DNA of 63,336 bases, filler included, from Folioceros fuciformis (GCA_049999805.1; 16 parts of 16 records of this genome joined end to end with filler, not necessarily neighbours in it); one strand, 5' to 3'. Counted from the whole stretch's first letter, positions 6,500 to 45,051 are shown. The notes: generated by a model not told the origin, from the sequence alone. Numbers and translations are program-made.

Positions 6500-9400
6500 T
6501 TTTATCATTGGATTTATATAGACTTGGTATCTAATATACCTAAGTTCTTCATGTGTTTAGTATGTAACTCCCGACCAAGGGACTTTGTAAGTAAATCAGT
6601 TGAATTATCTTGAGTTTGTATATAATGTATATCTATGGTTTTATTTTCCAACATTTCTTTAATGTAATGGTATTCGACACCTATATGTTTAGTTCTAGAA
6701 TGGAATATAGGATTTCTGGCTAATGCTATGGCTCCTTGGCTGTCACTATATAAGGGTGTAGGGTTGTCTTGTGTATGATTAAGCTCACTTAAGGCTAACC
6801 TACTTCATACAATATCCTTGGCAACTGAGGTTCGTACTCTATACTCTGACTCAATGCTTAACAAGGCTATGGTCATTTATTTCTCACTTGACCATGAAAT
6901 AGGGGCTTTGCATAGCATAAGTATATAGCCAGATACTGATCGCCGTGTGTCAGGGTCGCCAACATAGTCGGCATCAGCATATGCTGTTAATATTGGTTTA
7001 TGCATACTCAGTGTATGTTGATAAACAAATCCTGTATTCATCGTGCTTTTGAGATACCGAAATATTCTTTTAACAGATGTCCAATGTTCACGTCCAGGAT
7101 TTTCTAGAAATTGTGAACAAACACTAACTTCAAAGTATATCAGGCCTAGTGAAGTTGCTCAAATATATATGTGTGCCAACAGCGTGTCAATAAGGTACTA
7201 TTGACATTTGTAACTTGTCTGCATCTATATGAGGGCACATGTTTTATGTGAGTCTTATCCCACTAGCAAAAGGAGTGGGAGCAGGTTTAGCGTCTCCTAA
7301 TCCAAATTTGATTAAGCTTTCCTTAATATATTTTGTTTGAAGAATGCTTAAAGTTCTACGGATGCTTTAATTTCAGCTAGGAGAGAGGATGAAGAGGAAG
7401 CCATAAATACGTCATCAACGTAAAGTAAGAGGTAAATTATCTCTTTTCCAGAGATTAATATATACATACAAGGATCTGCCTTGCTTTGTTGAAAACCTGG
7501 TTTCATAAGTTTAACATGTATTATGGTATTCCATTCCTTGCCAGATTGCTTCAATCCATAAATACATTTGATAAGCTTACACACCAAATTTTCTTTGCCT
7601 TTAACCTCATAACCCTTAGGTTGTCTCATGTATATTTCCTCTCGTAGATGCCCATGCAAATATGTTGTCTTCATATCCATCATATGGAGTTCAAGATCCT
7701 ACTTGGCAGTTAAAGCAAATATCATTCGGAGGCTGGCAAATTTGGCTACAGGGGCATAAGTGGCCCAAGGTACATAGTCTAGGCCAGGAATTTGTGTGAA
7801 ACCTATGGCTACTAGACGTGCCTTATATCTTTCAATAGAACCATCTCCTTTTCTTTTGATTTTGAATACCTATTTGCTTGTCACTATCTTCCTACCCTTG
7901 GGGGGTTTGAGTAGTTCCCATGTAGAATTCTTAATTAGGGAATCATATTCGGAATCTACTGCTGCATTCCATAAGCCCTTTTCAGGGGATGAGAAGGCTT
8001 GTTTAAGAGTAGTGGGTTCTTCTGGGGTCAACATTTGTCTAATATACGGCCTCGGAAGTAGCTAGGTATCCTAAAGGAGGCTCTTTCCACCCAGCAGGAC
8101 CAAGAATGGTTGGTCTGGTTCTGAGATTATATTCTAACATGGTCTAATCCAGATGGGCGGATTCCACAAAGCCCGTTTTGCGCTTTTTAAATTTGTCTTG
8201 ATCCGCACCCCATATCTACCTTTGATCTCTTTTCACAAACAATAAGACCACCGACATGTATGCGTATATTATTTATTCACCAAATATCAATAAAACCAAA
8301 ATAAATGCAGTACACATTGTGAGTCTTCTACGTGAAACTTGATATTTAACAATTGAAACATATGGTGCGTCGGTCAACCGGCGCATAAGCTATTCAAAAT
8401 ACTTCATGTTCTAGTAAAGGATGAGTTCAAGTTAAGTCTCACACAAAAACTGGGTCATCCTTGTTGGCCTCGGAACTGTATACAATACACCGGTGCGCCG
8501 GTCACTGGGGTCTGGATTTTGTACATTTGGTCTACCGGCGCACTCCCGCCGGCTTGGGGCTCTAGTGCGTCGATAGACCGGCGCACTCACGCCGATTCGC
8601 GCTCCAATGCACCAGTAGACCGGCCCATTCGAGCAGCCGGCTAGGGTAGAAGTGCACCGGTAGACTAGCGCACTCGGGCAGAAGTGCGCCAGTAGACCGG
8701 CGCACTCGGGTAGTGCAGGTCCTAATTCGTCCTCCTGCATGACAGGTCCATCAAAGGGAAGTCGAAGAGTAGGATCAGGAAAGTCCACAATATAGTCACT
8801 AGTATCAAAACAACATTCAAAAGAAGAACATTCAGGTTCGACATCCTCAAATGAAGGGTGAGCAGGCAAAACATTTCCCACTGAAGATGAAAATAGGGAA
8901 TGTTCATAAAAAGTGACACTACGAGAATAAAGAAGCCTCTTAGTGGAACGATCAAACAATTTATAGCCCTTGATTCCTTCCGAATAACCAATAAAGGTAT
9001 ATTTTACAGGCTTTGGATCAAACTTCCTTGTTAATGCTTTAGGGACAAAAACATATGCCAGAGATCCAAAAATGCGGAGATGTTCTATAGAGGGCTTTTT
9101 GCCTATAAAGGCTTCATATGGTGTCATACCTTGGACTGCTAAGGTGGGCAATCGGTTCATGAGATATGTGGTTGTGAGGAGTGTCTCAGCCCAATAAACC
9201 TTGGGTAACTTTGCTTGATTTAACAGGCAGCCAATAATCTCTTAAAGGCGTAGATTCTTATTTTCAGCTACGCCATTTTGTTGAGGAGTATAAACAACAG
9301 TAAGTTGTTGAGCAATACCGCGAAGGCGACAAAAATCCTCAAATTGATTGGAAGTAAACTCGCCACCATTGTCAGAACGTAAGGTTTTGAGTTTCTTCTC

Positions 9401-12271: not shown

Positions 12272-13606
12272 GACAGCGGGCTAGCCATTGCTGGCTATGG
12301 TGACATCTTATTTCCTCTGAGCAGTGGGCAGCAGATCCAGCTACTCAGGGTTCTTCATGTGCCTAGCATGAAGAAGAATTCGCTATCAGTACGCAAACTG
12401 GTTATAGGGTTGCGCATTTGCTTTACATCAACTGGCTATTTAGTTACTTCACTACAACATCCCTCTGTTATCCTTGGGGAAGGAGTTTCCTATAATGACC
12501 TACATCATTTTGATACGTCAAAAGCACATATCAAGGATCAATCTCTTGGCTTGGTGGTTGATGATAAACCTGCAGTTGATGATACATACCTCTGGCATAG
12601 CCGGTTGTGTCACCCTAGTGTGACTTATATACGACAGATGATTAATAGGCAAGAGCTCTACAAGGACCCTCTCATTTTTAAAATCAAAGATCACCTGTTC
12701 TGTGAGCATAGTTAGGTTGGTAAGATGGCTCAATGGCCCTACAATGACCCAGAGCCAACTAAGGCACTCGGACTCCTGGATGTTGTACACTCGGATATTT
12801 GTGGACAAATGTCCACAGCCTCTTTTGGTGGTGCTTCATACTTCCTTCTTTTCTTGGATGAATGGAGTCATTACAATATGCTATATTTTTTGCATCACCG
12901 TTCTCAAACATACGAGAAATTTGTTGAGTATGTTCAGATGGCAGAAACCCAAACTGGTTGTACCCTGAAGAAATTGAGAAGCGATAATGCAAAGGAATAC
13001 CTCAGCGATGAGTTTTAGTCTTATTGCCGACAAAAGAGCATCCATCATCAGTTGACGGTGCCCTACCATTCAGCACAAAACTCATATGCTGAAAGATACA
13101 ATAGAACCTTGCAAGAGCATTGTCGGCCTACCTTATTATCTGCAGGCCTTACCCATGGGTACTGGGCTGAAGCCGTGGCAACTGTAAATTATGTCCATAA
13201 TAGGCTGCCTAGTAAGCCATCCTTCTTATTCACACCTTTTGAGCATTGGTGTAGTCATAAGCCTAGGATTGGACACCTCAGGATATTTGGTGCTGTCGCT
13301 TATGCCTACATTCCCATAGACAAACGTGCTAAGATGGACAACACGGCTACTAAACAAGTATTTGTTGGTTATTCAGAACAGGCAAAAGGTTACAAGTTAT
13401 ATGATTCACATACAAAACAACTCACTTTAGCAAGGAGTGTGAGTTTCAACGAAAGTTTCATAGTCACTTCAAATCTTAAGTCTATCACTAGCCATGAGCC
13501 GTTATCAAAACCTACAGTTTATGGATGTTTACCTATATTTAATTCAGAACATGGTGAAGAGGACAAGGACCTGTTGTTTGATGGTCCTCTACAGCCAGTT
13601 GACATC
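12272..13606 (+). pseudogene. pol: Copia protease C-terminus, GAG-pre-integrase and integrase
   Basis: LWHSRLCH, VHSDICG, LRSDNAKEY, HLRIFG, GYKLYD. Confidence 0.92.
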
Positions 13607-14502
13607 TATGGTGGCAAAACCCCGGGCACTATTTGCCAATGGGTTCAACCTTTAGCGGCCACACTTATCCTACTGTCGTTGAGACACTGGGTTTCGTTCC
13701 CACAAAGGAGCGATGGGGTTCCTAGTTGCTCTGGATGGAGGGTCGGACTCACTCGATTCGATGATGGATTCGAGAGCTCCCCTCCAGCTTCGATTTGTCG
13801 TGGGACAGTTCTCGCTATCCAGCAGATAGCTGCACCTCTCTCGGTGCTCACAAACTCACTCCAGTCACTACAACGACCCTAATTTCTTAGATCTGCAACT
13901 TCCCTCGCTTCACTTCACTTCACTCACTCACTCCCTCACTCCAGCACCAGCAACCAGCAACGACACCAACACCTTCTACGCTTTCCTATTGACTCCTGTG
14001 GAGGCAAAACCTTGGGCTCACTCCCAAAGTGAATGACTCCCTCCTCCTACAGGCTCACCTGATCTTATAAGAGCCTCTCTCTCTCTCTGACTTCACCTCT
14101 CTCTAACTTGAGAAATATTATTTTAATAGCCTAGCCGGCTATCACCAGCCACTTATTTAGACTTCAAGCACATCCTGCCACCAATGAGCTTGCCCTACCA
14201 CCACAAGGATCTACCACCTCTTAGACTATCCTGAGACTTCGGAGGATGTCTGATCTTCAAAGATCTGCGGACGCCGCCTCTTCCTTGTTGGATGGTCGCC
14301 CGCTAAGTCTTCCCCTGCAACTGTTCACCCTTGGTGGCTGAGCCAGCCTCCAGGAAAGGAACATGAGCAATGGGAAAGATAGAGAAGAGGTGGGAAGGAG
14401 TGGGATCAGTAGTCGGAACCTGGCCTGAAAACAGTAGCTTATTCAGCGGGATCAGCTTCCAGCCGAAATGGTTCCTCAACCATGGAAGGCTGACCCTGGG
14501 GT
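13607..14502 (+). mobile_element. 5' part of a TGTGG-family LTR, probably gypsy
   Basis: TATGGTGGCAAAACCCCGGG start; homologous inverted ends at 39777, 45719, 51956, 60550; second short start at 13997. Confidence 0.75.
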
Positions 14503-18089: not shown

Positions 18090-21000
18090 TCAGGATTGAG
18101 ACGGAGAACATGGTGCAACACCCATCGCCTCCATGAATTGATAATGTTTACTCGCGGGCAGGTACTTGGTCAACAAGTCTGCAGTGTTGTAATCTGTTGA
18201 GACATGCTGAAGTCGCACCACCTTCTGTTCCACTTGTTGACGAATAAAATGATGCTGCACCTCGATGTGCTTTGTTCGGGCATGGAAACGCGGGTTTGCT
18301 GTCATACTGATAGTGGAAACATTGTCGCAGTGGATAAGAGTGGGCTTTAGCTGTGGAAAACCAAGACCCTGCAGGAAGGCACGCTCCCAAATTGCTTCTT
18401 TGGCAGCTTCAGTTAGGGCTTTGTACTCTGCCTCAGTAGAGGACAGAGAAACGGAAGCCTGCTTCTTTGAGCTCCAGTGAACAACAGCATTTGAGAGAAT
18501 GAAACAGTAGGCTGATATGCTTTGTCTGGCGTCAGGGTTTGTTGCCCAATCAGCATCGGCATAACCACACACGGTAGGTGTTGTATCTCGCCCCCTGAAG
18601 CATAAGCCGTGATTCATTGTGCCTTTAAGATAGCGCAAGATACGCTTGACGGCTGCCCAGTGAACTTGGCCAGGATTGTCAAGGAACTGAGAAACCGAGC
18701 TAACAGCGTATTGAATATCAGGGCGGGTCCAACAGCTGATGTAATTCAGACAGCCAACAGCGTGACGATATGGAAACTGAGACATAGCCTGGCGCTCATG
18801 ATCATCTTGTGGACAGTCATCAGCAGAAAGCTTGAGACCTGGAACACCAGGGGTGGAAACGGGCTTGGCAGAATCAAGGTGAAAACGGCAGAGAGTTTCG
18901 GCAATATATTTGCTTTGGTGAAGCATGAGAGTCTGATCCTCCAAGTTGCGGACAAGTTGAACCCCAAGAACAAAGGTAAGAGGGCCGATGTCCTTCATGT
19001 CAAACTGTTGGTGCAGCATGCCCTTGACCCAGGCAAGTAACTCAGAGTTGTTTGATGCCAGAATAGCGTCATCAACGTACAAGGCCAGTATGACGAGATG
19101 ACCTCCTTTGGTATATATATACACGTTGGCATCACCAGGGTTCTGCACGAAACCAATGGACTGCAAATACTTGTCGATGGTTTTGTACCATTCCCGGGCG
19201 GATTGCTTAAGACCGTAAATGGTCTTCTTTAAACGGCACACCCAGGTAGGATGGTCTGGAGCAATAAAACCTTCAGGTTGCTGCATATAGATGTCCTCGT
19301 CAAGCTCACCGTACAGAAAGGCGGTACACACGTCCATCTGTTGCAAGTCCCAAGCATTGGCAGCGGCGAGGGCAAGTATCATTCTGATGGACTGGGTTTT
19401 GACGACAGGACTGAAGGTCTCTTGAAAATCAACACCGGGAATCTGAGTAAAACCCCGAGCCACAAGACGGGATTTGTATCTAGCAATCTCCCCTTTTTCA
19501 TTCAGTTTATGCTTGAAAACCCACTTACAACTGACAGTTTTGCGGCCAACAGGCAGAGGACAGAGATCCCAGGTACCATTCTTGATAAGCGAGTCATACT
19601 CATCCTTGATGGATGGAATCCAGTGTGCTTTGTCTGGGCCAGTAACAGCTTCAGTGTAAGTGCGGGGCTCAGGCTTGAGAAAAGGAAACTCAGAGTTATT
19701 AGTCTTGAGAGACATGCCAGCCCTAGGACGCCGATAGTCCACAGACTGATACGGAGGCTCCTTCCAGTGAGCAGGGGGCACTCTCTCACGAGTGGGGTAC
19801 CGGTGTTCAGGCGGAGGAGCAGGAAGGGGTACATCATCATCATCAGTCACAGCAAGTTCTGGTAAAAGGTTACTGTCAGCTGAGTCGTCTGAGTGATGAG
19901 AAGCAACATCCTGCAAATCTGCTGACCCGGGAATTGACACGTCTCCTGCAGAAGCTGGATTCGCTTGATCTGCTGCAACGGAGCCAGTGTCGGTGGCAGG
20001 AATAACGTCAGGGACACCGGCAGCAGCAGCAGGAGCAACGGGTTGTGCCACCGGAAACTGCAAGAGACCAGGGTCAGGTTGGACCACTGAGCTGACATCA
20101 ATAAAATCATCCTGGGGGAACTCAGACAGGTCCTCTTCTGCACTGGCATCTGCATCGGTAAGATTCGCTGGTACAGAAAGTGTTGATTCAAAATAAGGTT
20201 TGGCAGGACTGATGAGTTCTCGAAAGGTAACACTCCTAGCGAATTGTGCTGACTGGGTGAGTGAATCATACAACTTGTAAGCTTTCGCTTCTTCACCATA
20301 CCCAACAAACAGCAGGGGTTTAGCCCGTGCATCTAACTTTCTTCGCTTTTCAGCAGGGATATATGCATAAGCAGGAGAGCCAAATACTCGAAGATGAAGT
20401 AAACTCGGCTTCCTTTGCCATATAACCTCATAAGGTGTTTTGCCATCCACAGCACTTGTCAAGAGACGATTAAGGATGTAAGTCGTAGTCACCACTGCTT
20501 CTGCCCAAAATGCTTTGCTGAGACCTGACCATTCCAGCATGCTGCGCGTCATGCCTAACAGGGTCTGGTTGCGGCGCTCAGCAACGCCATTCTGCTGCTG
20601 GGTATAAGGGACTATGAGCTGACGGACAATCCCTCGGTCAAGAAGAAACTGGTTGAAGTTGCCATGTGTAAATTCTGTACCATTATCTGAACGCAAGCAC
20701 TTCAGCTGGCGACCTGTTTGTTTCTGAACCATCTGCAGCCATTCCTGGAAGAAAGCAAAGGTGTCTGACTTCAAACGCATCGGGTAGGTCCATGAATACC
20801 TACTGAAGTCATCCGTGAGTGTAAGATAATACAAGGCACCACCTAGAGAAGGTATGTGAATCTTCCCAGAGATGTCTGCGTGCACGAGGTCCAGAATCTG
20901 AGAAGCTCTATATGCTGTCTGTTTGGGAAAGGGCACTTCCTTTTGCTTTGCTATCACACAAGCATCGCACAAAGGCAAGTCCTTGAAACATTTGGGCAGT

Positions 21001-22463
21001 GGTTCCCTGTAACAGGTTAGGTTGGACATCTTGATGAGCTTATCCCGATTGGCATGTCCTAGACGTGCGTGCCAGAGACTGGCTTGAGCAGCTTGGGTGG
21101 ACAGAGTGACATTGGCAGTGTCCACAGGTATGGCTTTTAAATCAAGTTGATATAAATCGTGCACTAAGTGTCCTGTAGCAACTACCTGACCTCTCTCCCC
21201 TCTCTTCATAAGCTCACAGCGTGAAGAAGTGAAGAGCAGATCGAAAGTGCGTAAGGACATAAGTTGGCTAACAGAAAGCAGATGTTTAGCCATGCGGGGC
21301 ACGTACAGGACGTTATCCAAGTGAAGGATGGAACCATCATGCAACATAAAGCGACAGGACCCAGAGCCTTCTATCTGCAGACCTGTACGGGTAAGTTCAT
21401 CACCCAAAAGCACTTTATCTGAAGTGGTAGATGACTGAAAATTGCTGATCAGGGACTTATCTTTGCAAATATGAGATGTAGCTCCTGAATCTAAATACCA
21501 GCACTGTGGGGAAGGATGTGCAGAAGACACAAGACAGACTGTCATGATGACAGGTGGTTTACTTGTGATCGACTGAGAAAGCCGATCCTTGGCAGCCAAG
21601 TGTGCCTCAGCCTGTTTCAAAGGCTTCTCAGCTTTACGAGGCTCGCCAGATTTTTTCTTCCGACATTCTCTCTCCTAGTGGCCCTGTATACCACACCAGT
21701 TACAGGCGCCAGTACGTTTCACAGAAATGGTCTTCGAAGAACCTGCACCTCCACTCGAGGTAGGTTTCCTCCGGTTTTGCTTTACTTGAGTCGAAAGGAC
21801 CTCGTCTGTCCTGGTTCGTCCACCATGTAAAGTAGAAGTAGCCCTGCTTTGTTCTTCCTGTAGCAAGGCACCAATAACATCAGCCAGGTTGATGTTGGTA
21901 GGCTGACCTGCGGCCCGAGCAGCATCAGCAGCGCGAACTGTGGCACCGTAGCTGGAGACGAAAGTCTGATAGCTGGGGGGCAGACTTGTCAACAACTGAC
22001 TAACTGCATCAAGCTCCGGGAATTGAGAACCCAAGTTGATGAGTTGGGCACGAAATTGGCGAAAACGGATGACAAAAGGGGACACCTTTTCACCCTCCTT
22101 AAGACGCAGAGAGAAGAGCTCTCCTCGAACGGCACACATGGTAAGAATATTTTTGGCTTCATAAGTCTGAGTCAGGAGAGTCCAAATCTCGTCAGCCTTG
22201 GTGAGGAAGGCAACGTCTGCAAGCAGTGTCTCATCCAGTCCGCTAATTAAGACGGCGCGAGCGACATAATTCAGGTTTGCCCATTTGTCCTTTTCCTCTT
22301 GTGTGGCAGATTGTGGAGGTTCCTTAAGCGTGCCACTAACAACTCCCCAAACGTGTCTCGCTTGCAGGGCAGCTGTCATGCGCACCTTCCAACCTTCGAA
22401 TTTCATCCCATTAAATCGATCCCGCTCCTTGAACTCAAAAGAGTAGGATGGCTGAGGAATCAC
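18090..22463 (-). mobile_element. gag-pol: Near-intact copia gag-pol, one frame of about 1458 codons with a single stop
   Basis: gag, CCHC, WYLDSGATSH, integrase, YVDD and RNase H all in frame; only visible lesion is TAG at 21675-21677. Confidence 0.97.
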
Positions 22464-25418: not shown

Positions 25419-28400
25419 TTAGGTGTCCGGGTCTTCCACTAACCCCATGGCTTCAGCAAATCTATCGTGCTTGTCCTGGGGAAGTGATTTTGTGAGTAAG
25501 TCTGCTATATTATCGTGCGTAGACACATACTGCAATGAAGCCTGACCTTCAGCCACCACCTGCCTGATAAAGTGGTGCTTAATTTCAATGTGCTTGGTCC
25601 TAGAATGAAGAACCGGATTCTGGGCTAGTGCAATAGCCGACTGATTGTCGCTCAACAGTAAGGTAGGTGTTGACTGTGCTTCTCCTAGTGAATCCAGCAG
25701 TTCTCTTCCATGCAGTATGTCTTGAGCTGCTGTTGTTGCAGCTATGTACTCGGCCTCGGTGGATGAGAGGGCCACAACTGGTTGCTTTTTGCTGTGCCAT
25801 GAGACAATGGTGGCTTGTCTCTCATCCTCCCCTAGCATTAGACAGTTAGCAGAGATGGAGCGTCTGCTGTCAATATCTGACGCCCAGTCTGCGTCACAGA
25901 AGCATGTTAGGCTGAGTGGCTTTGGATGTTGTCTGTAGAGCAGTCCTTTCCTTGGTGTACCACTTAGATATCTCATGCATCTTTGTACTGCTGCCCAATG
26001 AGCTGAACCATAGCTGGTGAGAAATTGTGAAGTGACCCCAACTGCGTGAGAGAGCTCCGGCCTTGTCCAGCTCCGGAAATATATCAGCACTCCCACTGCA
26101 GGTCTGTACGGAGTCTTTTCCATTTGTATTCATTCTTGTTCAGTTTTAGGTGATTGCTCACTTGATAATTTTTCTCCCACTGCCATGGGTGTAGCTGCAG
26201 GGGATGCATTTTGAAGTCTAAACCGAGCTAAGACTTGATGCACGAAATGGGCTTGATGAATAAAGACAGTATGTTTGGACAGGTTCTGCTGAATCTGAAC
26301 ACCTAGGAAGAATTTAAGTTGACCTAGATCTGTCATAGCAAATTCAGAGGTCAAGATAGCCTTTACTTTTGACATTAGTTCTGGGCTGCTTGCGATGATC
26401 ACAGCATCATCGACATACAAGGCTAGAAAGCAGATTCCATTACTGTCTTGCAGTTTGTAAACATTAGAGTCAGCACTACTCTGGACGAAGGCTGACTGCT
26501 TAAGGTAAGCATCTATTCTTTTAAACCATGCTCTGGGTGATTGTTTAAGACCATAGATGGTTTTTAACAACTTACAAACTTTGTTTGGGTGATTTTTATC
26601 TACATACCCTTTAGGTTGGCGCATGTAGATAGTCTCCTTTAAAGTGCCATTCAAGAATGCGGTCTTCACATCCATGTGATGCATGGCATAGTCATGTTGT
26701 GCAGCAACCGCCAGTAGGGTCCGCACAGATGTTGCTCGTACAACAGGTGAGAATGTTTCAGTATAGTCCAGACCTGCTACCTGGCTGTAGCCTCGTGCAA
26801 CCAAGCGTGCTTTGTATCTAGCAATTGAACCATCTGAGTTTAGTTTCTTTTTAAACACCCATTTGCATGTGACCGCTTTGCGTCCGGGAGGAAAGTCCTC
26901 CAACACCCAAGTTTTATTATCAATAACTGACTGGTACTCGGGCTGAATTGCAGCAGTCCACTTCTCCTTGTCTACTGAATTGATTGCCTCCTGATATGAT
27001 TGAGGTTCTTCCAGGTCTAGTGGTTCATTCCCATCTTGCACTAGAAATGACTGGTAGGTCAAAGGTGGTTCCTTCCAGTCAGCTGGAGATGATGTGTGCC
27101 TCCGAGAGCTTTGTCTTGGAGCTGCTACCTCTTCAGGTTTAGGTATATTGTCATGCAGTCCCTCTATTCCAGAGTTATCTTCCTCAGATGACTCCCTAAT
27201 TTCAGTGTCTACTGCAAGTGTGTCAGTTGGAAATCCGACATAGTCATCATCCAGGAAGTCTAAGGGTTCCTCTTCTGTGTTACTATCAGACTGCTGTAGG
27301 GTAGAACTTGTCTGGTTCTGGTTAGCTGGAACGTAAGGGTGAACAACTGAAGTCTGATTTACTAGAAAGGAAGGAGGACTGTCTGACTGACTTGTAACGC
27401 CTTCATGGTCATCATCAAGGTCAGGTTAGGGTACAGCAGAATTCAGGAGTAGCTGCTCATTAAATACCACACTGCGTGCATGTGTTGTTCTAGTAGAGGG
27501 ATCAAACAGCTTATAGCCCTTTATACCTTCTGTATAGCCAATAAAGATGTACTTTCGGGCTTTGTAATCTAACTTAACCCTTTGCTGTTCTGACAGGTGT
27601 GCATAAGCTGGAGACCCAAATATTCTCAAGTGGTTAATTCGGGGCCTATGTTTTGTCCATCTCTAGAAGGGAGTGGCACCCGAGAATGCACTAGTGGGTA
27701 CTCTATTTCTGACATAGACTGCAGTTGCTATGGCTTCTGCCCAGTAATCACGGGAAAGACCAGACAGCTTTAGCATAGACTTAGCAGATTCCTGAAGATG
27801 CTTATTACTCAACTCTGCTAGAGGATTTTGCGAGGAAGTATAGGGTACGGTGAGTTGCCTGATTATCCCCAGCTCCTTGCAATAATCCTTGAAGGCATTT
27901 GAAGTGAACTCACCCCCGTTGTCGCTGCGCAGGGCAATCAGAGTTTCTCCAGTCTACCGTTGTGCATATGGTACATACTCCTGAAAACAACCCAAGGTCT
28001 GGCTTTTCTCCTTGATCAGGTATACCACAGCATATCTACTCCAGTCATCCAAGAATGTAAGAAAACAAAGTGCTCCTCCTAGGGAAGCTGTAGACATAGG
28101 GCCGCACAGGTCAGTGTGGACCAGCTCAAGTGCCTTGGTGGCCCGAGTAGGATTCACATCCTTGTATGGCAGCCGATGGTGTTTGCCAAACACACACGGC
28201 TCGCAGAACTATCTTTCTGCAAACTGAAGCACAAATGGCTCTCTATAAAGGTTGGTGCTGGCCACCATTGCCTTTAGCTTGTCAAAGTTTACATGGGCAA
28301 GTCTGCAGTGCCACAACATAACTGCCTCCCTCCTTTTGGTTTCACGGCTGGCATTGGCGTGTGCTTGTGCAGGTTTGAGACCAAACTTGGAGGAAATGTT

Positions 28401-31269: not shown

Positions 31270-31747
31270 NNNNNNNNNNNNNNNNNNNNNNNNNNNNNNN
31301 NNNNNNNNNNNNNTTAATTAATTAANNNNNNNNNNNNNNNNNNNNNNNNNNNNNNNNNNNNNNNNNNNNATCCGAAGCTTTTGTGCTCACTCTGTCAGCA
31401 CCTTTCGCTCACCGTCCCACGACTGGCCATGGCTCTAAGGAGCAGATAACAAGTTCCATAACCAAAAAAAAAAAGGCTTAAATATAATTTTCCTTCTACC
31501 ACCACCATCGTAGGCTTGTCGGGGATAACTGATGTCTTGCATCAGTATGCCAAGGGGCTCAAACCCGTGCACGCGGCATCCAGACACACTATACTCTCAA
31601 CCCACTGGAACATCCACCTTGGCTCAACACGGTCAGGCGCTCTCTCCCTCCCAGCCCATCCACTCGCGGTCAGGAATGTTTCCTATTGCACCAGCACTTT
31701 CACCTCCACGAACTAATGGGCCCTGGCTACTTCTGCATTAGATACTC

Positions 31748-34700
31748 TCACGGTCGACCCTTACAACTGCAAAAACCATCTGCGAATCGATGAACACGGT
31801 ACCCATCTCTTACAACAATGTCCCTCTGTTCAAGCCTTGACATGATCTCCGTAGAACTGTGACAGTCACTGCACATGCGGAGATTCTTTGTCACCACCAG
31901 AGGTGTCCCGCATTGAGTGTTCAGCAGGCCAAACGCCAGAGCCAGTTTCTCAGCATGCCCACAAAGCATGTCTTCCTTATCCTTCTCAGACCCTGAAGAC
32001 TCCAACACCAATTTTGTGTGAGGTACGTGGCCTCCTTGCTTCAGACGCACATTCGTGCTCTGTACCTTTGATGCAATCTCCTCTCTTCTTTCTCCCACCA
32101 CAAACGTATGTACCTCCGTCTTCACCTCAATGCTCGCTACTGCAGGTTTCTTGTTAGCTCCGGCTACCCTTCTCTGTGCTTCAATCCTGTCTACATCGCT
32201 CCACCTCCCTGCATCTGCGTAGGCATTTGCCATGAGCACATACGCAGACGCCTCCTGAGGGTGCAGCCCAACAATGCTTTCGAAACACCACATGGCTCTC
32301 TCGATATCCCCGTGGGTTTTGCAAGCATTCAGGAAAGACATAAAGCCCACAACATTATTTTGGATATCGCATGATAAGAGGACGTTCTCAGCCTCATCTA
32401 AATGCCCTGCACGCCCAAGAAGATCAATCAAGCAATTGTAGTGCTCAGTGGTAGGTTTGATGCCATATTCTTCAGCCATGGAATCAAAGAGCTTGCGACC
32501 CTCAAGCACCAGTCCCTCGTGACTGCATGCTACTAGGAGGCAAGTGAAAGTAGCCTCATCCGGCTGGATACCGGCAACTAGCATCTCCTCGAAACACGCT
32601 AGTGCTTTGTTACCTTCATCACATGCACCATATCCAAATATCAGCGCGTTCCATGTCACCACATCCTTTAACGCCAAGCTGTTAAAAACCTGACGTGCAG
32701 CCACGAGTCTCCCACATTTTGCATACATGTCCACCAGGCAGTTGCCCAATACGATATTATCCAGCAGTCCTCTTCTCACAATCTCTAAATGCAGCTGCCT
32801 GCCCTTCTCTATGGCTCCAATGCTCCCACAGGCGTTGAGAAGGGAAGCAAAAGTAACGTGGTTAGCTATTATCAGGCCCTCCTCCTCCATTCGTCCATAC
32901 AAAACAAGGCAGTCATTCCCAAGCCCTTGCTGGGCATACCCCGTAATCATCGCAGTCCATGTCACCACATTCTTCGTGGTCATGCCGTCAAAAACCCGGC
33001 GTGCATCTGTCAGTTGGCCACATTTCGCATACATGTCAACCAGGCAGTTGCCCAACACTACGTTGTCCAGCAGCCCTCTTTCGACAATCTGTGAGTGCAG
33101 CTGCTTGCCCTTCTGTAAGGCACCAGTGCTTGCACAGGCTTTAAGAAGGCAAGCAAACGTAACATCATTAGCCAAAACGAGCCCCTCTTGCTCCATTTGT
33201 CCATACACAGCAAGCGCCTCTTGGCCGTGTCCTTGCTGTGCATACCCAGCTATCAGGGCATTCCATGTCACCACATCCTTTGTGGCCAAGCTGTCAAACA
33301 ACAGACGTGCAACTTTCAGTTCGCCACATTTAGCATACATGCCCAAAAGGCAGTTGCCCACCAGCAAGTTATCCAGCAGTCCTCTTTCTACAATCAGTGA
33401 GTGCAGCTGCCTGCCCTTATGCAAGGCCCCAGCACTTGCACAGGCCTTGAGAAGGGAAGCAAAAGTGACATGGTCTGCCACAATCAAGCCCTCCTGTTCC
33501 ATTTCTTCATATAAAACAAGGGCCTCATGCCCCAGCCCCGTGTCGGCATATGCAGCAATCAGGACATTCCAGGTCACCACATCCTTTGTGGCTAAGCTGT
33601 GGAAAACCTGGCATGCATCTGGCAGTTCCCCGCATCTTGCATACATGTCTACCAGGCATGTCCCCACCGGTGCTCTATCCAGCATTCTTCGTTCGACAAT
33701 CAGGGAGTGCAGCTGCCTGCCCTTCTGTATAGCACCAGTGCGTGCACAGGCCTTGAGAAGGCAAGCAAATGTAATATGATTGGCGAGAGTAAGCCCATCC
33801 TGCTCCATTTGTTCGTACACAGCAAGAGCTTCATGCCCGAGCTCTTGCTCAGCATACCCTGCTATCAGGGCATTCCATGTCACCACATTCTTTGTGCTCA
33901 TGCTGTCAAAAACCTGGCGTGCATCTTTCATTTCACCACATTTGGCATGTCCAGATATCATGGCATTCCACGTCACCACATCCTTTTTGGCCATTCTGTC
34001 GAAAACCTGGCGTGCAGCTTTTACTTCTCCACATTTTGAATACATGTCCACCAGGCAGTTTCCAACAAATACGTTAGTTGGAATGTCACTGTGCAGCACA
34101 TCGTAGTGCACTTTTCTGCCAGATTCCAAGTCGGAAGCAAATGCGCAAGCTTGAAGCGCAGCCACAAAGACGTGACCATTCGGCTTCACTCCTGACCTAC
34201 GCATCTCATGGTAGAGTTGTATGGCCTCCTTAGCTTGCCCATGCTTTGCGTGTGCAGAGATCATGGAACACCACATGAAGGCATCTGGTCTGCGCACCCT
34301 GGTGAACACATCCATAGCCTCCTCTAGTCGACCTCCATATGCATACATGCGCAAGATATGGCTCCCCACGCATGCAATCGAATCGTACCCAAGTTTAACA
34401 CTGAGATCATGAACTCGTCTCCCAGCGACCAAATCCTTTTTCGCTGTACACAGCTTTAGCACAGTGCAGAACAGTGAGTGAGAAATAGCTGAGCGAGTCT
34501 GCGCCAGAAATTCCAGGGCTCCAACTGCCGAGGAAAGCTTGCCCTGCTGGCATAACATGCTCACGGTTCCAGCCTCTAAATGGCCCATTTCCGATCCTGC
34601 ACGCCTGCCAGGCTCAGGATTCTCCGGATAGCTGGACTTGAAACGAGAGGGAGCACGGCCCATCTGTACATCCAAGGAAACGAGCCGCTCATCAACCCAA

Positions 34701-35356
34701 GCTGGTTTGAACATATTGTTTAACCACAGGACCTCACCAGGCCCCTTACGCTGGAAGTCGGGCGACCGCAAACTCTTCTTACGTCGTCTGTCATCCCACC
34801 ACACGGTAGGGTCGAGAAAGAATTGTCGCCACAGGTGCTCCTGCTCTTGGGAACTCCCATAGCTGGAGAATCCGCTCCCACCCACACATTTTCCCGGAAA
34901 TGTAAGTGCTGGGCTCCTTTCAGGAGTGCTGCACATTGACCCCATCAAGGATCCTTCGTGGCTGCCAGGTTCAGGCATGAAGGGCTTGGAAGCAAAGGCG
35001 CCACGAGGTGAATGCATATCCAAGGAAACCAGCTGCTCATCAACCCAATCTGGCTTGAACAGATTGTCTGACCAAAGGACCTCGCCGGACCCTTTACGCC
35101 GAAAGAGAGGCGGACGGCCGCATCTGTTGTTCCACCACCTGATAGGTTCCACAAAAAGTTGTTGCCTCAAGTGATTCTGCCCCTGGCTTCGCGCATGATG
35201 GGTGGAAAGTCCGTCCCCACCCACAAATTTTCCCCGAAGCGGAAGTGCTGGTCTCTTGGTAGTGCTGCAACTGCAACTGCACCTGCACCTAGGTGCACGC
35301 GGGGGCGAGGTGGCTTGCCACACGGTGAGACTATCTGACCCGGGAAAGAACGACTC
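31748..35356 (-). CDS. PLS-class PPR-E1-E2-DYW:KP (GRP-type) organellar RNA-editing factor with two N-terminal PDF-like motifs; main exon
   Basis: About 21 P/L/S motifs, E1, E2, KPAVASIEV, HAEKLA, CSDCH, CSCKGRP*; uninterrupted frame of about 1200 codons; true start unresolved, TTTTAG acceptor at 35357. Confidence 0.96.
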   Translation of the reverse strand, partial: ESFFPGSDSLTVWQATSPPRAPRCRCSCSCSTTKRPALPLRGKFVGGDGLSTHHARSQGQNHLRQQLFVEPIRWWNNRCGRPPLFRRKGSGEVLWSDNLFKPDWVDEQLVSLDMHSPRGAFASKPFMPEPGSHEGSLMGSMCSTPERSPALTFPGKCVGGSGFSSYGSSQEQEHLWRQFFLDPTVWWDDRRRKKSLRSPDFQRKGPGEVLWLNNMFKPAWVDERLVSLDVQMGRAPSRFKSSYPENPEPGRRAGSEMGHLEAGTVSMLCQQGKLSSAVGALEFLAQTRSAISHSLFCTVLKLCTAKKDLVAGRRVHDLSVKLGYDSIACVGSHILRMYAYGGRLEEAMDVFTRVRRPDAFMWCSMISAHAKHGQAKEAIQLYHEMRRSGVKPNGHVFVAALQACAFASDLESGRKVHYDVLHSDIPTNVFVGNCLVDMYSKCGEVKAARQVFDRMAKKDVVTWNAMISGHAKCGEMKDARQVFDSMSTKNVVTWNALIAGYAEQELGHEALAVYEQMEQDGLTLANHITFACLLKACARTGAIQKGRQLHSLIVERRMLDRAPVGTCLVDMYARCGELPDACQVFHSLATKDVVTWNVLIAAYADTGLGHEALVLYEEMEQEGLIVADHVTFASLLKACASAGALHKGRQLHSLIVERGLLDNLLVGNCLLGMYAKCGELKVARLLFDSLATKDVVTWNALIAGYAQQGHGQEALAVYGQMEQEGLVLANDVTFACLLKACASTGALQKGKQLHSQIVERGLLDNVVLGNCLVDMYAKCGQLTDARRVFDGMTTKNVVTWTAMITGYAQQGLGNDCLVLYGRMEEEGLIIANHVTFASLLNACGSIGAIEKGRQLHLEIVRRGLLDNIVLGNCLVDMYAKCGRLVAARQVFNSLALKDVVTWNALIFGYGACDEGNKALACFEEMLVAGIQPDEATFTCLLVACSHEGLVLEGRKLFDSMAEEYGIKPTTEHYNCLIDLLGRAGHLDEAENVLLSCDIQNNVVGFMSFLNACKTHGDIERAMWCFESIVGLHPQEASAYVLMANAYADAGRWSDVDRIEAQRRVAGANKKPAVASIEVKTEVHTFVVGERREEIASKVQSTNVRLKQGGHVPHTKLVLESSGSEKDKEDMLCGHAEKLALAFGLLNTQCGTPLVVTKNLRMCSDCHSSTEIMSRLEQRDIVVRDGYRVHRFADGFCSCKGRP

Positions 35357-35446
35357 CTAAAACTCGTCAAGTTATTAATGCAAGCAAGTGTGCAGTCGTG
35401 GGGTCCACCATCCTGACACCGGTAGCCGGTGGAGCCAGCATGCCCT

Positions 35447-35662
35447 CGGAGGAGTGTGGCATGCACAAAGTCATTACCTCATACATGCACAGCCAACTCA
35501 CATCGGTGGAGTGTGGCATGCACATAGTCATTATCTCATACATGCACAGCCAACTCACATACGCTCGTGTATGCCGGGGTAGAGACAACTCACATGCGCC
35601 CGTCTATGCCGGGGTCGAAACAACTCACATATGCCCGTGTATGCCGGGCTCGAAACTCACAT
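35447..35662. repeat. Tandem repeats (57-bp x2, about 35-bp x3) upstream of the PPR exon
   Basis: AACTCACAT at 35495, 35552, 35587, 35622, 35654. Confidence 0.85.
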
Positions 35663-36199
35663 GGACGTCGTTGCCACATTTTGCGACATCAAACACTTCA
35701 AATCCCCTTTTCAAGTAAGGGTGTTTTCCTTCAGCACTAAAGGCAAGTACAAGAGGGCTCATTATGAAGCTCACGTCAAGAGCTTTCTTCTGAATCAAGA
35801 ATCAAAGTATATGGATAAACATGGAGATAGAAAATTACATTCAAAGAACGAGTTGGTTGCTATCTTCTTTGACAGATAGCAAGACATATACTGGACCATA
35901 TCAGGATTGAGATAGCTTTTTTTCTGAAGCCTACAATAAGAGCATTTTTTCTAAACCATTCTCACAGCCTAAGAATAAGTATAGACATTGGAATAGACAT
36001 TCAAAGAACTCATAACAAAAGCTGAGTTGGTTTTCTTCTTTCACCCGTAGCTCAAGATATCTTCAACAAAAACAGGGTACATATGACTTATTTTGAAGCT
36101 TGAATTGAGAGCGTTTTTTTAATCAAGCCATGGAGTTTGTGGGCAAGTATGGAGACTACAAAAACCATTCAAAGATATGATGATAGAAGCTAGTTGTTG

Positions 36200-37260
36200 A
36201 CCAAGATCACACTTGATTCTCATCTCGTAGGAGGACCGTGGACATCTTCTCCTTCCTCACCTTCTTCGGATGCTTCTAGCTATTTGCAAGCTCAACAATG
36301 CTCTTTTTCCATTTCAAACTATTGCCAAGACCATTGTCCATTTAGTTGAGCTGAACAGAATTCAAGGTTTGTGCTCCACATAATCGGGATTCTACTTGTC
36401 GTGGCTGACATAACAGAATGTTGGCTTCAGCATATGCATGCTGAAGCAAAGAAGGATTTCCAGACTGTACAAGATCCTACAATGCTTGAATTGTATACTC
36501 CCAATCTTTGTATGAGCATTTAGGTAGCATAGCTTGAGGGTTGTTGGAAGCTTGCACCCCTCCAACACATGATGTGTCCTCTCCTACATGACAAGGTTTA
36601 GTGTTTGTTGAAGTATTGTTACGTACAAGTGTGAGAAGGAGGTCCCGAGTTGAATGCAATTGCCCTTTCATTTGTAATACCTTTGCTTGGTGTTTGCAGA
36701 AAAAGCCTTGCATTCCTCTTGGACAATTGCAGCATGCCCAGTCCCCTACAGGATTGTAAACTGTGTATATCAGCCTTTTATCTGTGCAGCTTTGCACAAG
36801 AGCTGGTTCTTAATCATTAGGAGGAAGTGTAACATGGTCCTCAGGTATAGAAAGAGAGCCCCTCACACTGCATTTTCAATAATCACCTCTTGCTTTCCAT
36901 TGTGCTTGAACCCATGTTGTTTTGTAAAGTGCTTGTGCCAATACACTTTGCATACTGTATTTGTTAGTGATGGAGCAACCAATCCATACGTCGACCTCGC
37001 AGACGCATAAAATCATGGCTCAACATGGACTTTAAGAAGCCATGCCAAGCTTCAATTGATGAATTGCAGTCCTAGCTAGCATGTGGCATGGTCGTGGAAT
37101 ACTTTAGCCACATAGGTAGCACCCCCTCCACTGATTCTTGAAATACTGAATAAACTCTGGAGCTTCTCTTTCATAATCCACATATAATTGTTGTAGCATC
37201 TTCTTAGCCTCATCATATATGTGCCAACGTCGAGAAACATACATGATGCCACCAAGGCGA
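36200..37260 (-). pseudogene. Mutator-like (MULE) transposase relic with SWIM zinc finger
   Basis: FIQYFKNQW, NSSIEAWHGFLK, GRRMDWL, WACCNCPRGMQGFFCKH. Confidence 0.8.
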
Positions 37261-37510
37261 CTAAATGTGAGTAAATAGGGTCTTTTTACCCCACCCTTGG
37301 GTTAAATAATTTAGGGTAATATACCTTTTCGTAACTTAGGGTTACACAGATAATTTTGTATATAAACACACATTGCCTTTGATTTAATTTATCATTTTTG
37401 TGCACTTGTANNNNNNNNNNNNNNNNNNNNNNNNNNNNNNNNNNNNNNNNNNNNTTAATTAATTAANNNNNNNNNNNNNNNNNNNNNNNNNNNNNNNNNN
37501 NNNNNNNNNN

Positions 37511-38526
37511 CAAGCACCAGAAAAAAATGGGACGACAAGGGAAGGAAGCTCCTGTTCATAGGCTACTCCGATCAAGTCAAAGCTTACAAACTCTTCGATC
37601 CCTCAACTCATGAGGTAACCCTCTCCCGCAGTGTTCACTTCAATGAACCTCTCCTGCTCCAAACCTACCTCCATAGCACGTCTACATCAACTCCACTTCC
37701 CAAACCTGGTCTTCATGGTTATCCCCCTCTTGATCTTGAGGGGGGCACACACGATGACGATACTTACTCCTCCGATCAGTCATTCTTCTTCCAAGATCAA
37801 GAGGCCCTCACATTACCTCCATTAGCAGTACGAGAGGTAAATTCTAATCAACATGTAGGTTCTGAACCTCCTCACTTACTAGATGTACAGACTTTAAGAC
37901 GCTCTTCCAGGCATAGACCTCCCAGGACTGAGTGGTCGGATCCACCCTATACTCCAAGAGACACATTGGTCAGTAGGATCTCCTCTCCCAGTGCATCCCT
38001 ACCTTCAGATGCACCGACACCAGTCGATCAGGCGCACCTCGCCATGCATCAAGCCTTATCAGCTATTGAAATGCAAGGAGTACCTGCAACAATTGAGGAA
38101 GCTCTCAACATACCCGAATGGAAAGCAGCTGTACAATCTGAATACGACTCACTTCTTTCAAATAAAACCTGGATCCTTACTGGCTTACCACAGGGCAGAA
38201 AGCCAATTTCTTGTAAGTGGACTTTTCGGAGAAAGCTCAACCCAGATGGAAGCGTGTCACGGTATAAGGCCAGGCTCGTAGCCCGGGGATTTACCCAAAT
38301 CCCAGGTTTCGACTATGAGGAAACTAAGCTGTTTAGCCCAGTGGTAAAGGCAACATCCATCAGAGTTCTCTTGGCATTTGCCGCACAACATAAGCTCGAT
38401 ATCCACCAGCTCGATATCAAAACGGCTTTCCTGTATGGAACATTGCATGAAGACATATATATGCTTCAGCCACCTGGATTTGTGCAGGATCAGCGAAAGG
38501 TTTGCAAGCTACTTAAGTCAATCTAC
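37511..38526 (+). pseudogene. pol: Copia integrase C-terminus and RT fragment
   Basis: [35 protein letters not shown]. Confidence 0.93.
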
Positions 38527-38626
38527 NNNNNNNNNNNNNNNNNNNNNNNNNNNNNNNNNNNNNNNNNNNNTTAATTAATTAANNNNNNNNNNNNNNNNNN
38601 NNNNNNNNNNNNNNNNNNNNNNNNNN

Positions 38627-43100: not shown

Positions 43101-43337
43101 AGTAGTTAGGGTTTGGGCCGTCTCATGGCAGAGGCCTAGAGTAGTTAGATCTGTCTAGGGCTGGTGAGCAGCTGCCACAAACATGGTTGGGTCATGCTTT
43201 GGGGACATTTGCCATAACCACACGATAGTAGGGTGCTAGGGCTGCAATACCTAGGTCGTTCTAGCAGCTCCTTGTGTGTTGACACCATAGTCAGTAATCG
43301 GACACCTTGATCAGGCTTAGGTGTTTCAAGGCTTAGG

Positions 43338-44938
43338 CGCTTCGTAAGAGCACAAGACTCACATAGTGGAAGTGGCACAAGAGGACCTATCTGCCCATGC
43401 TGGTACAAATCACTTACAGCTAGTTTTTGTAGCTTAACAGAGTGTGGATGACCTAGTCGTAAATGCCAAAGTTTTGACTTCTCTATCTGCTGTACAGACA
43501 CTTGAGAAGATCCTTTAGTCAAATGGGCATGTGGCTTACGACTATCTGTATGAAGACAAAACAAGTCTTTCTCTGAAGACCCAAAGGCAAGTATTTTCTG
43601 ATGATTAAAGGCATCTAACACTTGACATTTTGTTTGAGTAAAAAGAATGTGACAGTGATTATCAGAATTCAACTTCCTTACGGAAATTAAGTTACGTGTC
43701 ATGTCTGGTACGTAGTACACATCATGTAACACTAATACATTTCCTGATGGTACTGACAGGTCTATGATACCAATACCAGGAGATACAAGGGATCTATCAT
43801 CCCCCAGGTATACGTACTGATCCTTGACTGATCTGTACGTTTGAAATGCCTTTTTGTCCAAGCATATGTGGGCAGTAGCCCCTGTGTCTAAATACCAGTC
43901 TATGGTATGCTGAACCTTTGGATGTGTTGACAAACAGGCAGGTGACAAGAACGAGCTTGTAGCAAAGACTGTTGTACCAACTGTGAGGGCAGAGGGGGTT
44001 GGTTGCTTCTTAATAACCACGTGAGTCTCAGCGCTGGTTGAACCCTCCTTGCGAGGAACACCAGCCTGCTTTTTCCTACACTCACACTCCCAGTGACCAG
44101 GTAACTTGCACCAGTTGCAATTTCCTGTCCTTTTGGGTTTTCTTTGACTGGCTCCACGTCCTTGTGAGCCACCTCCTCTTGAGGTACTGCCCCCACCCCT
44201 ATTGTAGGGTCTTCCTCCTCCACGTCCTCGGTTAGAAGTGAAGAGGGCTTGCTGTTTACTAGTGCGTCTGCTATGTGTTTTGCTGGCTTCCTCTTGCAAT
44301 AAAGCTCCCACTAACTCTGCAAAGCTTGTTTCAAGTAGGGTTACACCTGAAGCCTTTGCAAGCTTTTCAATCTGGAGCTTGGAGGCATTGAAGGATGTCA
44401 CAAAGTGTGACCAAGAATCTGGTAAGGATATTAGGAAGTATAGTGTAAGTATATCATCCTTTAAGGTCTCATTTGTAGCACTTTCCAGTCTTGAGACAAG
44501 TGTCCTGAAATGTCCAAGGTGCTTTTCAATTGAGTCTCCTTCCCTCATTTTACATAATTGTAAATTCCTTAATGCTGTCATTTGACTTGTCTGGTTGCTG
44601 CCTGAATACAGGTCTTGAAGTCTTATCCATATTTCAGCCGAGGTTGTGCATCCTGAAGTCTGTCTTAACATTTCTAAAGTAAGACCACTTCGGATGAGGT
44701 ACATGGCTGCTTCATCCTTTGCATCCCATGTATCCTTTGCCTTTTTCTCAGCTGTTGAAGGTTGTGCAGGAGGTGGAGGCATTAATGGGACCGGTTCTTC
44801 CCCAGTAACCACCTTCCACAATTTCCTATTTTGTAAGGCTCCTTTCATGCGGATTACCCATATATCGTAATCCTGCCCACCAAACCTATCCTTTTCCTTA
44901 AACCCATCCCCACCTAAAGTTGAGGGATCAGTGGCCAT
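43338..44938 (-). pseudogene. gag-pol: Copia gag-protease-pre-integrase, open frame, 3' truncated
   Basis: FKEKDRFGGQDYDIW, CNWCKLPGHWECEC, WYLDTGATAH, LWHLRLGH...CESC. Confidence 0.95.
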
Positions 44939-45051
44939 TTTTCCTCTTTTGTATTTTTGGGTTAGCTACTCCCAAGAATACTAAGATTGTGTAATGGCTT
45001 TTTGCAGGGGTTAGGAAAAACTCAAGACTTCAGATGCTTCATGCAGCAAGG

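Follow-up and report, generated by a model that had tools for sequence, protein, structure and literature searches.

The window analysed here, a stretch of 63,336 nt from Folioceros fuciformis (GCA_049999805.1; 16 parts joined with filler and not necessarily neighbours in the genome), carries on its minus strand a continuous open reading frame (ORF) that places PDF domains of the type known from the single-stranded DNA-binding proteins of organelles (OSB proteins) ahead of a PLS-type array of PPR motifs, an E motif and a DYW-family deaminase with the features of the KP variant (DYW:KP). This architecture is not confined to the window, since PDF domains preceding PPR arrays recur in proteins of lycophytes, ferns and a moss. 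The best explanation, to which slightly better than an even chance is given as a whole, is that a nuclear gene at this locus encodes a protein that would edit organelle RNA, of the PLS-class PPR-E-DYW type with a GRP-ending DYW:KP domain, that its N-terminal PDF domain would bind single-stranded nucleic acid, and that the first of its two PDF copies would be an older, decaying duplicate.

A PPR-E-DYW:KP reading frame headed by PDF domains

The ORF runs from stop to stop over 1202 codons, with the stop codon at 31748-31750, and presents in order two PDF-like units, the PLS-type PPR array, the E motif and the DYW deaminase. An earlier note on this DNA had placed two OSB-type PDF motifs at 34670-35173, in frame before a PPR array. 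The positions are correct; both peptides are encoded on the minus strand, within this one frame, and the plus-strand frame of the same interval is riddled with stops. The features of the locus are as follows, all on the minus strand.

31748..35356 (-): ORF; two PDF units in an N-terminal extension, then PPR array, E motif and DYW:KP deaminase
34934..35272 (-): tandem unit A (residues 29-141), in which PDF copy A lies between a pre-motif stretch and a linker
35015..35191 (-): PDF copy A, degenerate, ORF residues 56-114
35015..35017 (-): first in-frame ATG, residue 114
34583..34933 (-): tandem unit B (residues 142-258), in which PDF copy B is flanked likewise by a pre-motif stretch and a linker
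34667..34855 (-): PDF copy B, ORF residues 168-230; keeps the P-D-F triad and every conserved Trp
34331..35047 (-): 717-nt contig of public run X1, zero differences; from the start of the PPR part through copy B and the ATG into copy A
32315..34573 (-): PPR array, about residues 262-1014, limits approximate; Pfam PPR_2 1.6e-106, PPR 1.7e-104
32126..32314 (-): E motif, residues 1015-1077; PF20431, 3.5e-13, profile positions 1-63 of 63
31751..32032 (-): DYW-family deaminase, KP type, GRP subtype, residues 1109-1202; PF14432, 2.8e-30 (match 1109-1200)

The PPR array, the E motif and a deaminase with HAE and CSDCH together give the protein the composition of a PLS-class PPR-E-DYW factor. A tandem repeat of 306 nt was also observed within the PPR array (32640-33948; 4.3 copies, 76% matches, 102 codons per unit), which suggests that blocks of PPR motifs have been duplicated within the array.

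Identification of the PDF domains required a dedicated profile. Pfam assigns no family to the first ~260 residues of the ORF and none to the 168-residue PDF segment; as Pfam holds no model of the PDF motif, a test profile had to be built. This OSB-only profile comprises 142 PDF instances from 64 proteins that have an SSB-like (single-stranded DNA-binding) domain and no PPR, and it is partly dependent on the query, since its OSB proteins were fetched using copy B. Copy B matches it with 66.4 bits (independent E-value, i-E, 5.6e-20) and copy A with 30.5 bits (i-E 9.1e-9). Among the 785 six-frame ORFs of the window with at least 40 residues, the PDF-PPR ORF alone is matched, at two places, and none of the other 784 scores. 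An exhaustive phmmer search with copy B (64 residues; 1.84 billion representative proteins) returned 506 matches at E ≤ 1e-3, of which 95 reach E ≤ 1e-10 and 14 reach E ≤ 1e-30; the matches include a protein named ‘protein OSB1, mitochondrial-like’ (P0043, E 5e-18). Many proteins named OSB1, OSB2 or OSB3 also appear among the matches of a profile made from PPR-linked PDFs, and in 7 of 10 OSB-like matches scanned the PDF copies are C-terminal and preceded by the Pfam SSB domain. Word-indexed protein searches with the 168-residue segment and with ORF residues 1-300 came back blank, which reflects the index, since the exhaustive phmmer and profile searches did give matches. As judged by homology far above chance, copy B is a genuine OSB-type PDF domain, so that the reading of the pattern as an OSB-type PDF motif, made in the earlier note from the sequence alone, is borne out by the OSB-only profile, the phmmer matches and the named OSB proteins alike.

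The two copies differ markedly in their state of preservation. They share 55% identity (E 3e-23) and belong to tandem units of about 340 nt (~113-117 codons), which are 69% identical in nucleotides over 109 aligned codons; 31% of the aligned nucleotides differ, the number of synonymous substitutions per site (dS) is 0.65, and every insertion or deletion is in frame. The ratio of nonsynonymous to synonymous rates (dN/dS) is 0.34 within the motif and 0.69 outside it in the flanks, against 0.51 overall. Copy B retains all invariant and near-invariant columns of the alignment, including the Pro-Asp-Phe signature, read as S-P-D-F. In copy A the first conserved Trp is replaced by Arg, the signature has become P-L-F with loss of the Asp, and four residues are missing from the loop between the first two strands (a hairpin). 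This last deletion alone does not disqualify copy A, since OSB groups are reported to differ in the length of the region at positions 19-30 (PMC13393729, a survey of OSB genes from 2026).

The contrast extends to structure prediction with AlphaFold2. From 26 aligned sequences, copy B is predicted as a confident small alpha/beta domain (predicted local distance difference test, pLDDT, 90.2; predicted template modelling score, pTM, 0.74) with a helix at 4-16, strands at 21-23, 36-38 and 44-45 and a helix at 55-63. With the same 26 sequences, copy A gives a poor fold (pLDDT 59.1, pTM 0.30). No solved fold matched the copy B model: the best Foldseek hit against the PDB structure database had an E-value of 5.5, VIA-align against 48,161 chains reached a top Z of 3.4 with none at Z ≥ 5, and a sequence-profile search of the same database with copy B yielded a single match at E 0.93. 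Failure to match does not make the predicted fold a new one; it means that no known fold can be named for the model. A search of the ESM Atlas with ORF residues 1-300 had a best score of 0.84, under the level at which matches carry meaning.

At the other end of the protein, the deaminase was aligned with that of P0144, a PDF-PPR protein described below, and with five PG-type DYW domains from other PDF-PPR proteins. Where the PG-type relatives have PGxSW, both the window protein and P0144 have KPAVA; the two also share a 4-residue gap at the xHPx of these relatives, HAE in place of HSE, and a terminal GRP in place of DYW. In the window protein the motifs read KKPAVASIEV, GHAEKLA and CSDCH, and the chain ends in ...CKGRP. 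CxDCH and the lysine just before it (KNLR) are kept in all seven aligned domains. The GRP variant of DYW:KP is recognizable by KP for the PG box, HAE, absence of xHP and the GRP end, all of which are present, and it is by these same differences that DYW:KP is defined in PMC9478123. According to the same source, KP proteins are confined to hornworts, lycophytes and ferns, the hornwort variants DRH and GRP are named by their last three residues, and designer KP proteins perform U-to-C editing (PMC9478123). An active-site lysine, Lys88 of KP6, is described as essential to U-to-C activity (PMC11845758); the KNLR lysine, kept in the seven domains aligned above, may correspond to it. ‘Putative U-to-C editing PPR’, the label already given in the earlier note, remains a fair one, and the subtype is GRP.

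Recurrence and phylogeny of PDF-PPR proteins

Combination of PDF and PPR was found in 43 proteins among the stored matches, and in 42 of these all PDFs lie N-terminal to the PPR array. Two PDF copies are the commonest state (22 proteins), ahead of one (12) and three (9). In a Pfam scan of 42 sequences (41 PDF-PPR proteins and the window protein), PPR families were found in 41, the E motif in 31 and the DYW domain in 7. Pfam identifies eight of the 10 longest matches with an N-terminal PDF as PPR proteins. With a profile made from 11 PPR-linked PDFs, 1162 proteins among 8000 scored were matched at E ≤ 1e-3; within the best 120 of these 1162, precomputed Pfam assignments give PPR families for 31, of which 28 are models from Diphasiastrum complanatum. 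The sources include the following.

Selaginella moellendorffii (lycophyte): XP_024517303.1
Diphasiastrum complanatum (lycophyte): O6H91_* models, plus P0126
Ceratopteris richardii (fern): KAH7415342.1
Adiantum capillus-veneris (fern): KAI5076972.1
Pteridium aquilinum (fern): three transcriptome ORFs (EP00250)
Sphagnum compactum (moss): CAM6033764.1

One of the Pteridium ORFs, of 1374 residues, has three PDFs and a full array; as these ORFs derive from a transcriptome, the fusion exists at the mRNA level in a fern. Named seed plants are absent from the 43 proteins, a statement that holds for these lists only. The public names of PDF-PPR proteins are either ‘hypothetical’ or ‘PPR-containing’.

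A DYW domain is present in six of the 43, five times in the canonical PG/HSE/DYW form (C-to-U type) and once in the KP form (P0144). The possibility that the fusion is specific to U-to-C factors is rejected on these numbers; other genes have the fusion too, and its link to U-to-C editing is incidental.

In six of 42 relatives the first PDF lies within 10 residues of the annotated Met (P0095, P0096, P0044, P0206, P0214 and P0226, including a Selaginella RefSeq model). Such an extreme N-terminal position leaves no room for a transit peptide, so that either these models are truncated or the proteins are not organellar.

The relationships of the PDF motifs were examined in FastTree trees of 191 and 420 rows, whose resolution is poor with 70-71 columns. 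The PPR-linked label nevertheless changes only 2 times in the 191 rows and 4 times in the 420 (shuffle means 61 and 74; none of 500 shuffles as low). Copies A and B of the window are mutually nearest, P0144 comes next, and both copies fall inside a PPR-only set of 14 rows (SH-like support 97). The two PDFs of a fern OSB protein with an SSB domain (P0232, Adiantum) cluster with the OSB rows, and the split is therefore not simply one of seed versus seed-free plants. PPR-linked PDFs thus appear to form nearly one separate branch of the PDF family. A single ancient recruitment of the PDF to PPR proteins would be compatible with the trees and is not demonstrated by them.

Outside the PPR and OSB proteins, seven PDF stretches each were seen by phmmer in two dinoflagellate proteins (P0009 of Effrenium voratum and P0010 of Cladocopium sp.), in which no SSB or PPR domain was found. 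A model from Coptis chinensis (P0052) has three PDF stretches (best residues 188-245) together with a kinesin motor domain; it may be either a true fusion or an annotation that merges separate genes.

Translation start, fate of copy A and role of the PDF domain

How much of the N-terminal extension is translated depends on the position of the start codon. No in-frame ATG precedes copy A; the first Met is residue 114 (35017-35015), directly after copy A, and it is itself preceded by three out-of-frame ATGs (35196, 35123 and 35040). Upstream of 35356 the frame is closed by many stops, and the N-termini of P0144, P0007 and P0157 remained unmatched there by tblastn. A hypothetical intron of 85 nt (GT at 35419, AG at 35336-35335), read by eye, would link an ATG at 35441 in frame and was not retained. 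Two short tandem arrays were observed just upstream of the ORF, at 35446-35656 (one with 2.0 copies of a 57-nt unit, the other with 3.0 copies of a 35-nt unit), and they hold repeated ATGTGAGT strings on the strand of the gene.

Translation from the ATG at 35017-35015 would yield a protein of 1089 residues with ~54 residues rich in Ser, Gly and Pro, one PDF (copy B) and the PPR-E-DYW part, and would leave copy A as a decaying duplicate in the 5′ leader. This alternative comes close to an even chance without quite reaching it. It accords with the position of the first in-frame Met and the stop-filled sequence upstream of 35356, with the same layout in P0144 (a pre-sequence of 79 residues, one PDF, then PPR-E-DYW:KP), and with the condition of copy A, which has lost two near-invariant residues and four further ones and which falls behind copy B both in its match to the OSB-only profile and in the confidence of its model. 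Moreover, the 55 residues that follow Met114 contain 24% Ser/Thr and 5% acidic residues. Yet the 113 codons upstream of this Met stay open, whereas simulated neutral decay keeps the unit stop-free in 2-22% of trials only, a range that depends on the share of the divergence assigned to copy A; the in-frame character of every indel between the units and the motif dN/dS of 0.34 likewise speak against an untranslated copy, the three upstream out-of-frame ATGs would hinder use of Met114, and two PDF copies are the prevailing condition among relatives. A start at Met114 and a putative upstream exon or start that would bring copy A into the protein are regarded as about equally probable. Of the two PDF motifs announced in the earlier note, copy B stands, while copy A, degenerate and lying ahead of the first in-frame ATG, is only a putative part of the protein.

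A public sequencing run (X1) contains contigs identical to the gene in eight listed pieces over 31370-35047; its kind is only guessed as RNA (‘RNA?’), and no run with this stretch is recorded as RNA. Its contig of 717 nt is collinear with the gene: it covers the first part that codes for PPR, copy B, the in-frame ATG and part of copy A, and therefore no intron removes copy B in this data set. Run X1 has no cover at 35410-37410, which is not used to place the end of a transcript. Each PDF copy is also overlapped by ten other contigs of the run, with at least 90% identity and one differing base each (34715 and 35049). Their summed depth is far greater than the depth of the exact contig; at 35049 they make up 1128.8 of 1152.4. 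From these additional contigs, a family of near-identical PDF units seems to exist in the organism.

As to what the PDF domain, a module of some 55 residues, does, published knowledge comes from OSB proteins. The motif comprises about 50 residues with a conserved Pro-Asp-Phe signature (PMC6963530), and two reviews that cite Zaegel 2006 report that the PDF motif of AtOSB1 is sufficient for binding of single-stranded DNA (ssDNA) and that OSB1 and OSB2 favour ssDNA over double-stranded DNA (dsDNA) or RNA (PMC6963530, PMC4166229). In the preferred explanation, the PPR array of the window protein would recognize RNA sequence upstream of the edited base, and the editing chemistry would fall to the DYW:KP domain. 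PPR arrays bind RNA with their N-terminal repeats toward the 5′ side; an N-terminal PDF would add sequence-independent single-strand binding 5′ of the stretch recognized by the array, and this binding might raise affinity or residence time. The occurrence of the PDF on PLS proteins with and without a DYW domain, and with both types of it, makes a general role (affinity, recruitment) likelier than a role in U-to-C chemistry.

Several points weigh against this explanation. The predicted PDF fold is unmatched to any solved nucleic-acid-binding fold and so offers no independent structural support. The analysis shows which domains the protein has and in what order, one continuous ORF, a recurrent architecture and the KP features; that the window PDF binds nucleic acid, that it prefers RNA to ssDNA and where translation starts are inferred, and binding and editing by PDF-PPR proteins in general are putative. 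Copy A has no in-frame ATG ahead of it, and the first in-frame ATG is preceded by three out-of-frame ones. Run X1, the source of the identical contigs, is not recorded as RNA, and six of the 42 relatives offer no room for a transit peptide. Finally, by analogy, the ssDNA preference of OSB1 and OSB2 would favour a DNA tether over RNA binding.

An alternative, the main idea of the earlier note, is that the PDF would tether the editing factor to nucleoid ssDNA (displaced strand, R-loops, replication or recombination intermediates), with editing taking place on nascent transcripts. Although the reported binding of OSB PDF motifs to ssDNA, the preferences of OSB1 and OSB2 and the significant match of the window PDF to OSB PDFs agree with it, PPR-linked PDFs branch apart from those of OSB proteins, so that their ligand preference may differ, they occur on PLS proteins of several kinds rather than on a special class, and localisation and DNA binding are both putative; the tether is held unlikely. 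Still less probability is given to a function in protein-protein contacts (oligomerisation or partner recruitment), import or regulation instead of nucleic-acid binding. AtOSB2 is reported to be a tetramer (PMC6963530), PDF repeats occur on unrelated proteins such as the Coptis kinesin model, and the PDF stands at the very N-terminus in six of 42 relatives; against this, ssDNA binding is the only function reported for the motif in the reviews cited above, and the conserved PDF residues (W, F, R, K) have the aromatic and basic character typical of single-strand binders. That the whole is an artefact or pseudogene, either a dead OSB fragment abutting a PPR gene or a gene non-functional for want of a start codon, is very improbable. 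The head of the ORF lacks an ATG and Ty1/copia fragments surround the gene, but 1202 codons are open with HxE and CxDCH intact, no SSB domain lies nearby, the window PDFs group with PPR-linked and not with OSB-linked motifs, identical contigs of run X1 cover the gene, and the N-terminal order of PDF and PPR is that of nearly all relatives (42 of 43) in several species, transcript-derived ORFs included.

A broader proposal concerns PLS-class editing factors in general. MORF helpers are reported to be restricted to seed plants (PMC9459714, PMC13386178), and for this reason the PDF as an in-cis helper of seed-free plants in place of MORF is an attractive, if speculative, idea. In its general form, the PDF would be an accessory, sequence-independent single-strand clamp of PLS editing factors in seed-free land plants, recruited once and early from organelle DNA maintenance, and either anchoring these factors to nucleoid ssDNA or R-loops, so that editing would be co-transcriptional, or substituting for MORF-type helpers; this form is put forward tentatively and is doubtful as it stands.

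Genomic surroundings and comparison with known systems

The PPR gene is the only non-transposon gene identified in the window, the rest of which consists mostly of fragments of Ty1/copia-type retrotransposons (RVT_2, integrase, gag) at 575-1333, 5296-6135, 8435-9241, 13019-13879, 18093-21674, 26133-27425, 37459-38574 and 43148-44965; the ORF at 37459-38574 resembles reverse transcriptase, as judged by eye. About 1.1 kb upstream of the gene, an ORF of 110 residues (36480-36809, minus strand) has a weak match to a SWIM zinc finger (E 3.9e-4) and is probably a transposase remnant. Runs of N occur in pairs of 44 + 44 with 12 bases between them at 15 places of the window (e.g. 31270-31313 and 31326-31369) and look like masking rather than assembly gaps.

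Full-text literature searches gave no account of a PDF-PPR architecture, with Zaegel 2006, Gerke 2020, Gutmann 2020 and their supplements outside their coverage, where an earlier mention is possible. In the text of a 2026 survey of the OSB family ‘PPR’ occurs 0 times (PMC13393729), and in a kingdom-wide survey of editing factors from the same year ‘PDF’ and ‘OSB’ occur 0 times (PMC13386178). The remark of the earlier note that the architecture was not known as characterised agrees with the literature searched: it is apparently undescribed in print, yet public protein sets plainly contain it, where such proteins are called ‘hypothetical’ or bear a generic PPR name.

These observations widen the known range of the PDF domain, which recent surveys treat as a feature of OSB proteins only (PMC13393729, PMC13386178). 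They also bear on how PLS-type PPR factors, in the absence of the MORF/RIP helpers that seed plants have, reach sufficient affinity and specificity, and on the in vivo working of U-to-C (DYW:KP) factors. An accessory, probably nucleic-acid-binding domain carried by dozens of such factors in lycophytes, ferns and a moss, and here by a KP protein of the GRP type, offers a testable handle on both.

Compared with OSB proteins, the window protein has the same PDF domain of ~50 residues, as the score of copy B indicates, with the shared pattern LW..F..P..WWDNR..K...PDF.HK...E.LW....P.WV, and tandem copies are common in both. It differs in lacking the central SSB-like/OB-fold (oligonucleotide/oligosaccharide-binding fold) domain of the OSB family (no match to PF00436 in the 1202-residue ORF at E ≤ 1 in Pfam), and in the placement of the PDF, which is N-terminal, before PPR-E-DYW, whereas it is C-terminal to the OB-fold in OSB proteins.

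Its deaminase resembles that of the GRP subtype of PPR-DYW:KP proteins, the hornwort U-to-C candidates that are the basis of the designer proteins KP2 and KP3 (PMC9478123), in KPAVA, HAE, the absence of xHP, CxDCH, the GRP end and probably the lysine before CxDCH; unlike the window protein, these are presented with no mention of an N-terminal PDF domain in the available portion of that paper. The nearest relative found, P0144 (753 residues, from a public assembly), has the same succession of pre-sequence, PDF, PPR, E and DYW:KP ending in GRP. It shares 56% identity with the window protein over the C-terminal 570 residues, and its PDF is the nearest to both window copies; it differs in having a single PDF with RDF for PDF, in an array of PPR motifs that is shorter, and in its annotated Met, which lies 79 residues ahead of the PDF. 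The PDF-PPR proteins of Diphasiastrum, Selaginella, Ceratopteris, Adiantum, Sphagnum and Pteridium are alike in their one to three N-terminal PDFs, PLS-type array and, often, E motif, but unlike the window protein most of them either have no domain beyond the E motif or are of the canonical PG/HSE/DYW type. The PDF is not among the accessory domains given for Physcomitrium PPR proteins in the part of PMC9459714 that treats them, namely RRM, LAGLIDADG, SMR, NYN, CBS and SAP; these proteins nonetheless resemble the PDF-PPR proteins in joining a PPR array to a second module related to nucleic acids.

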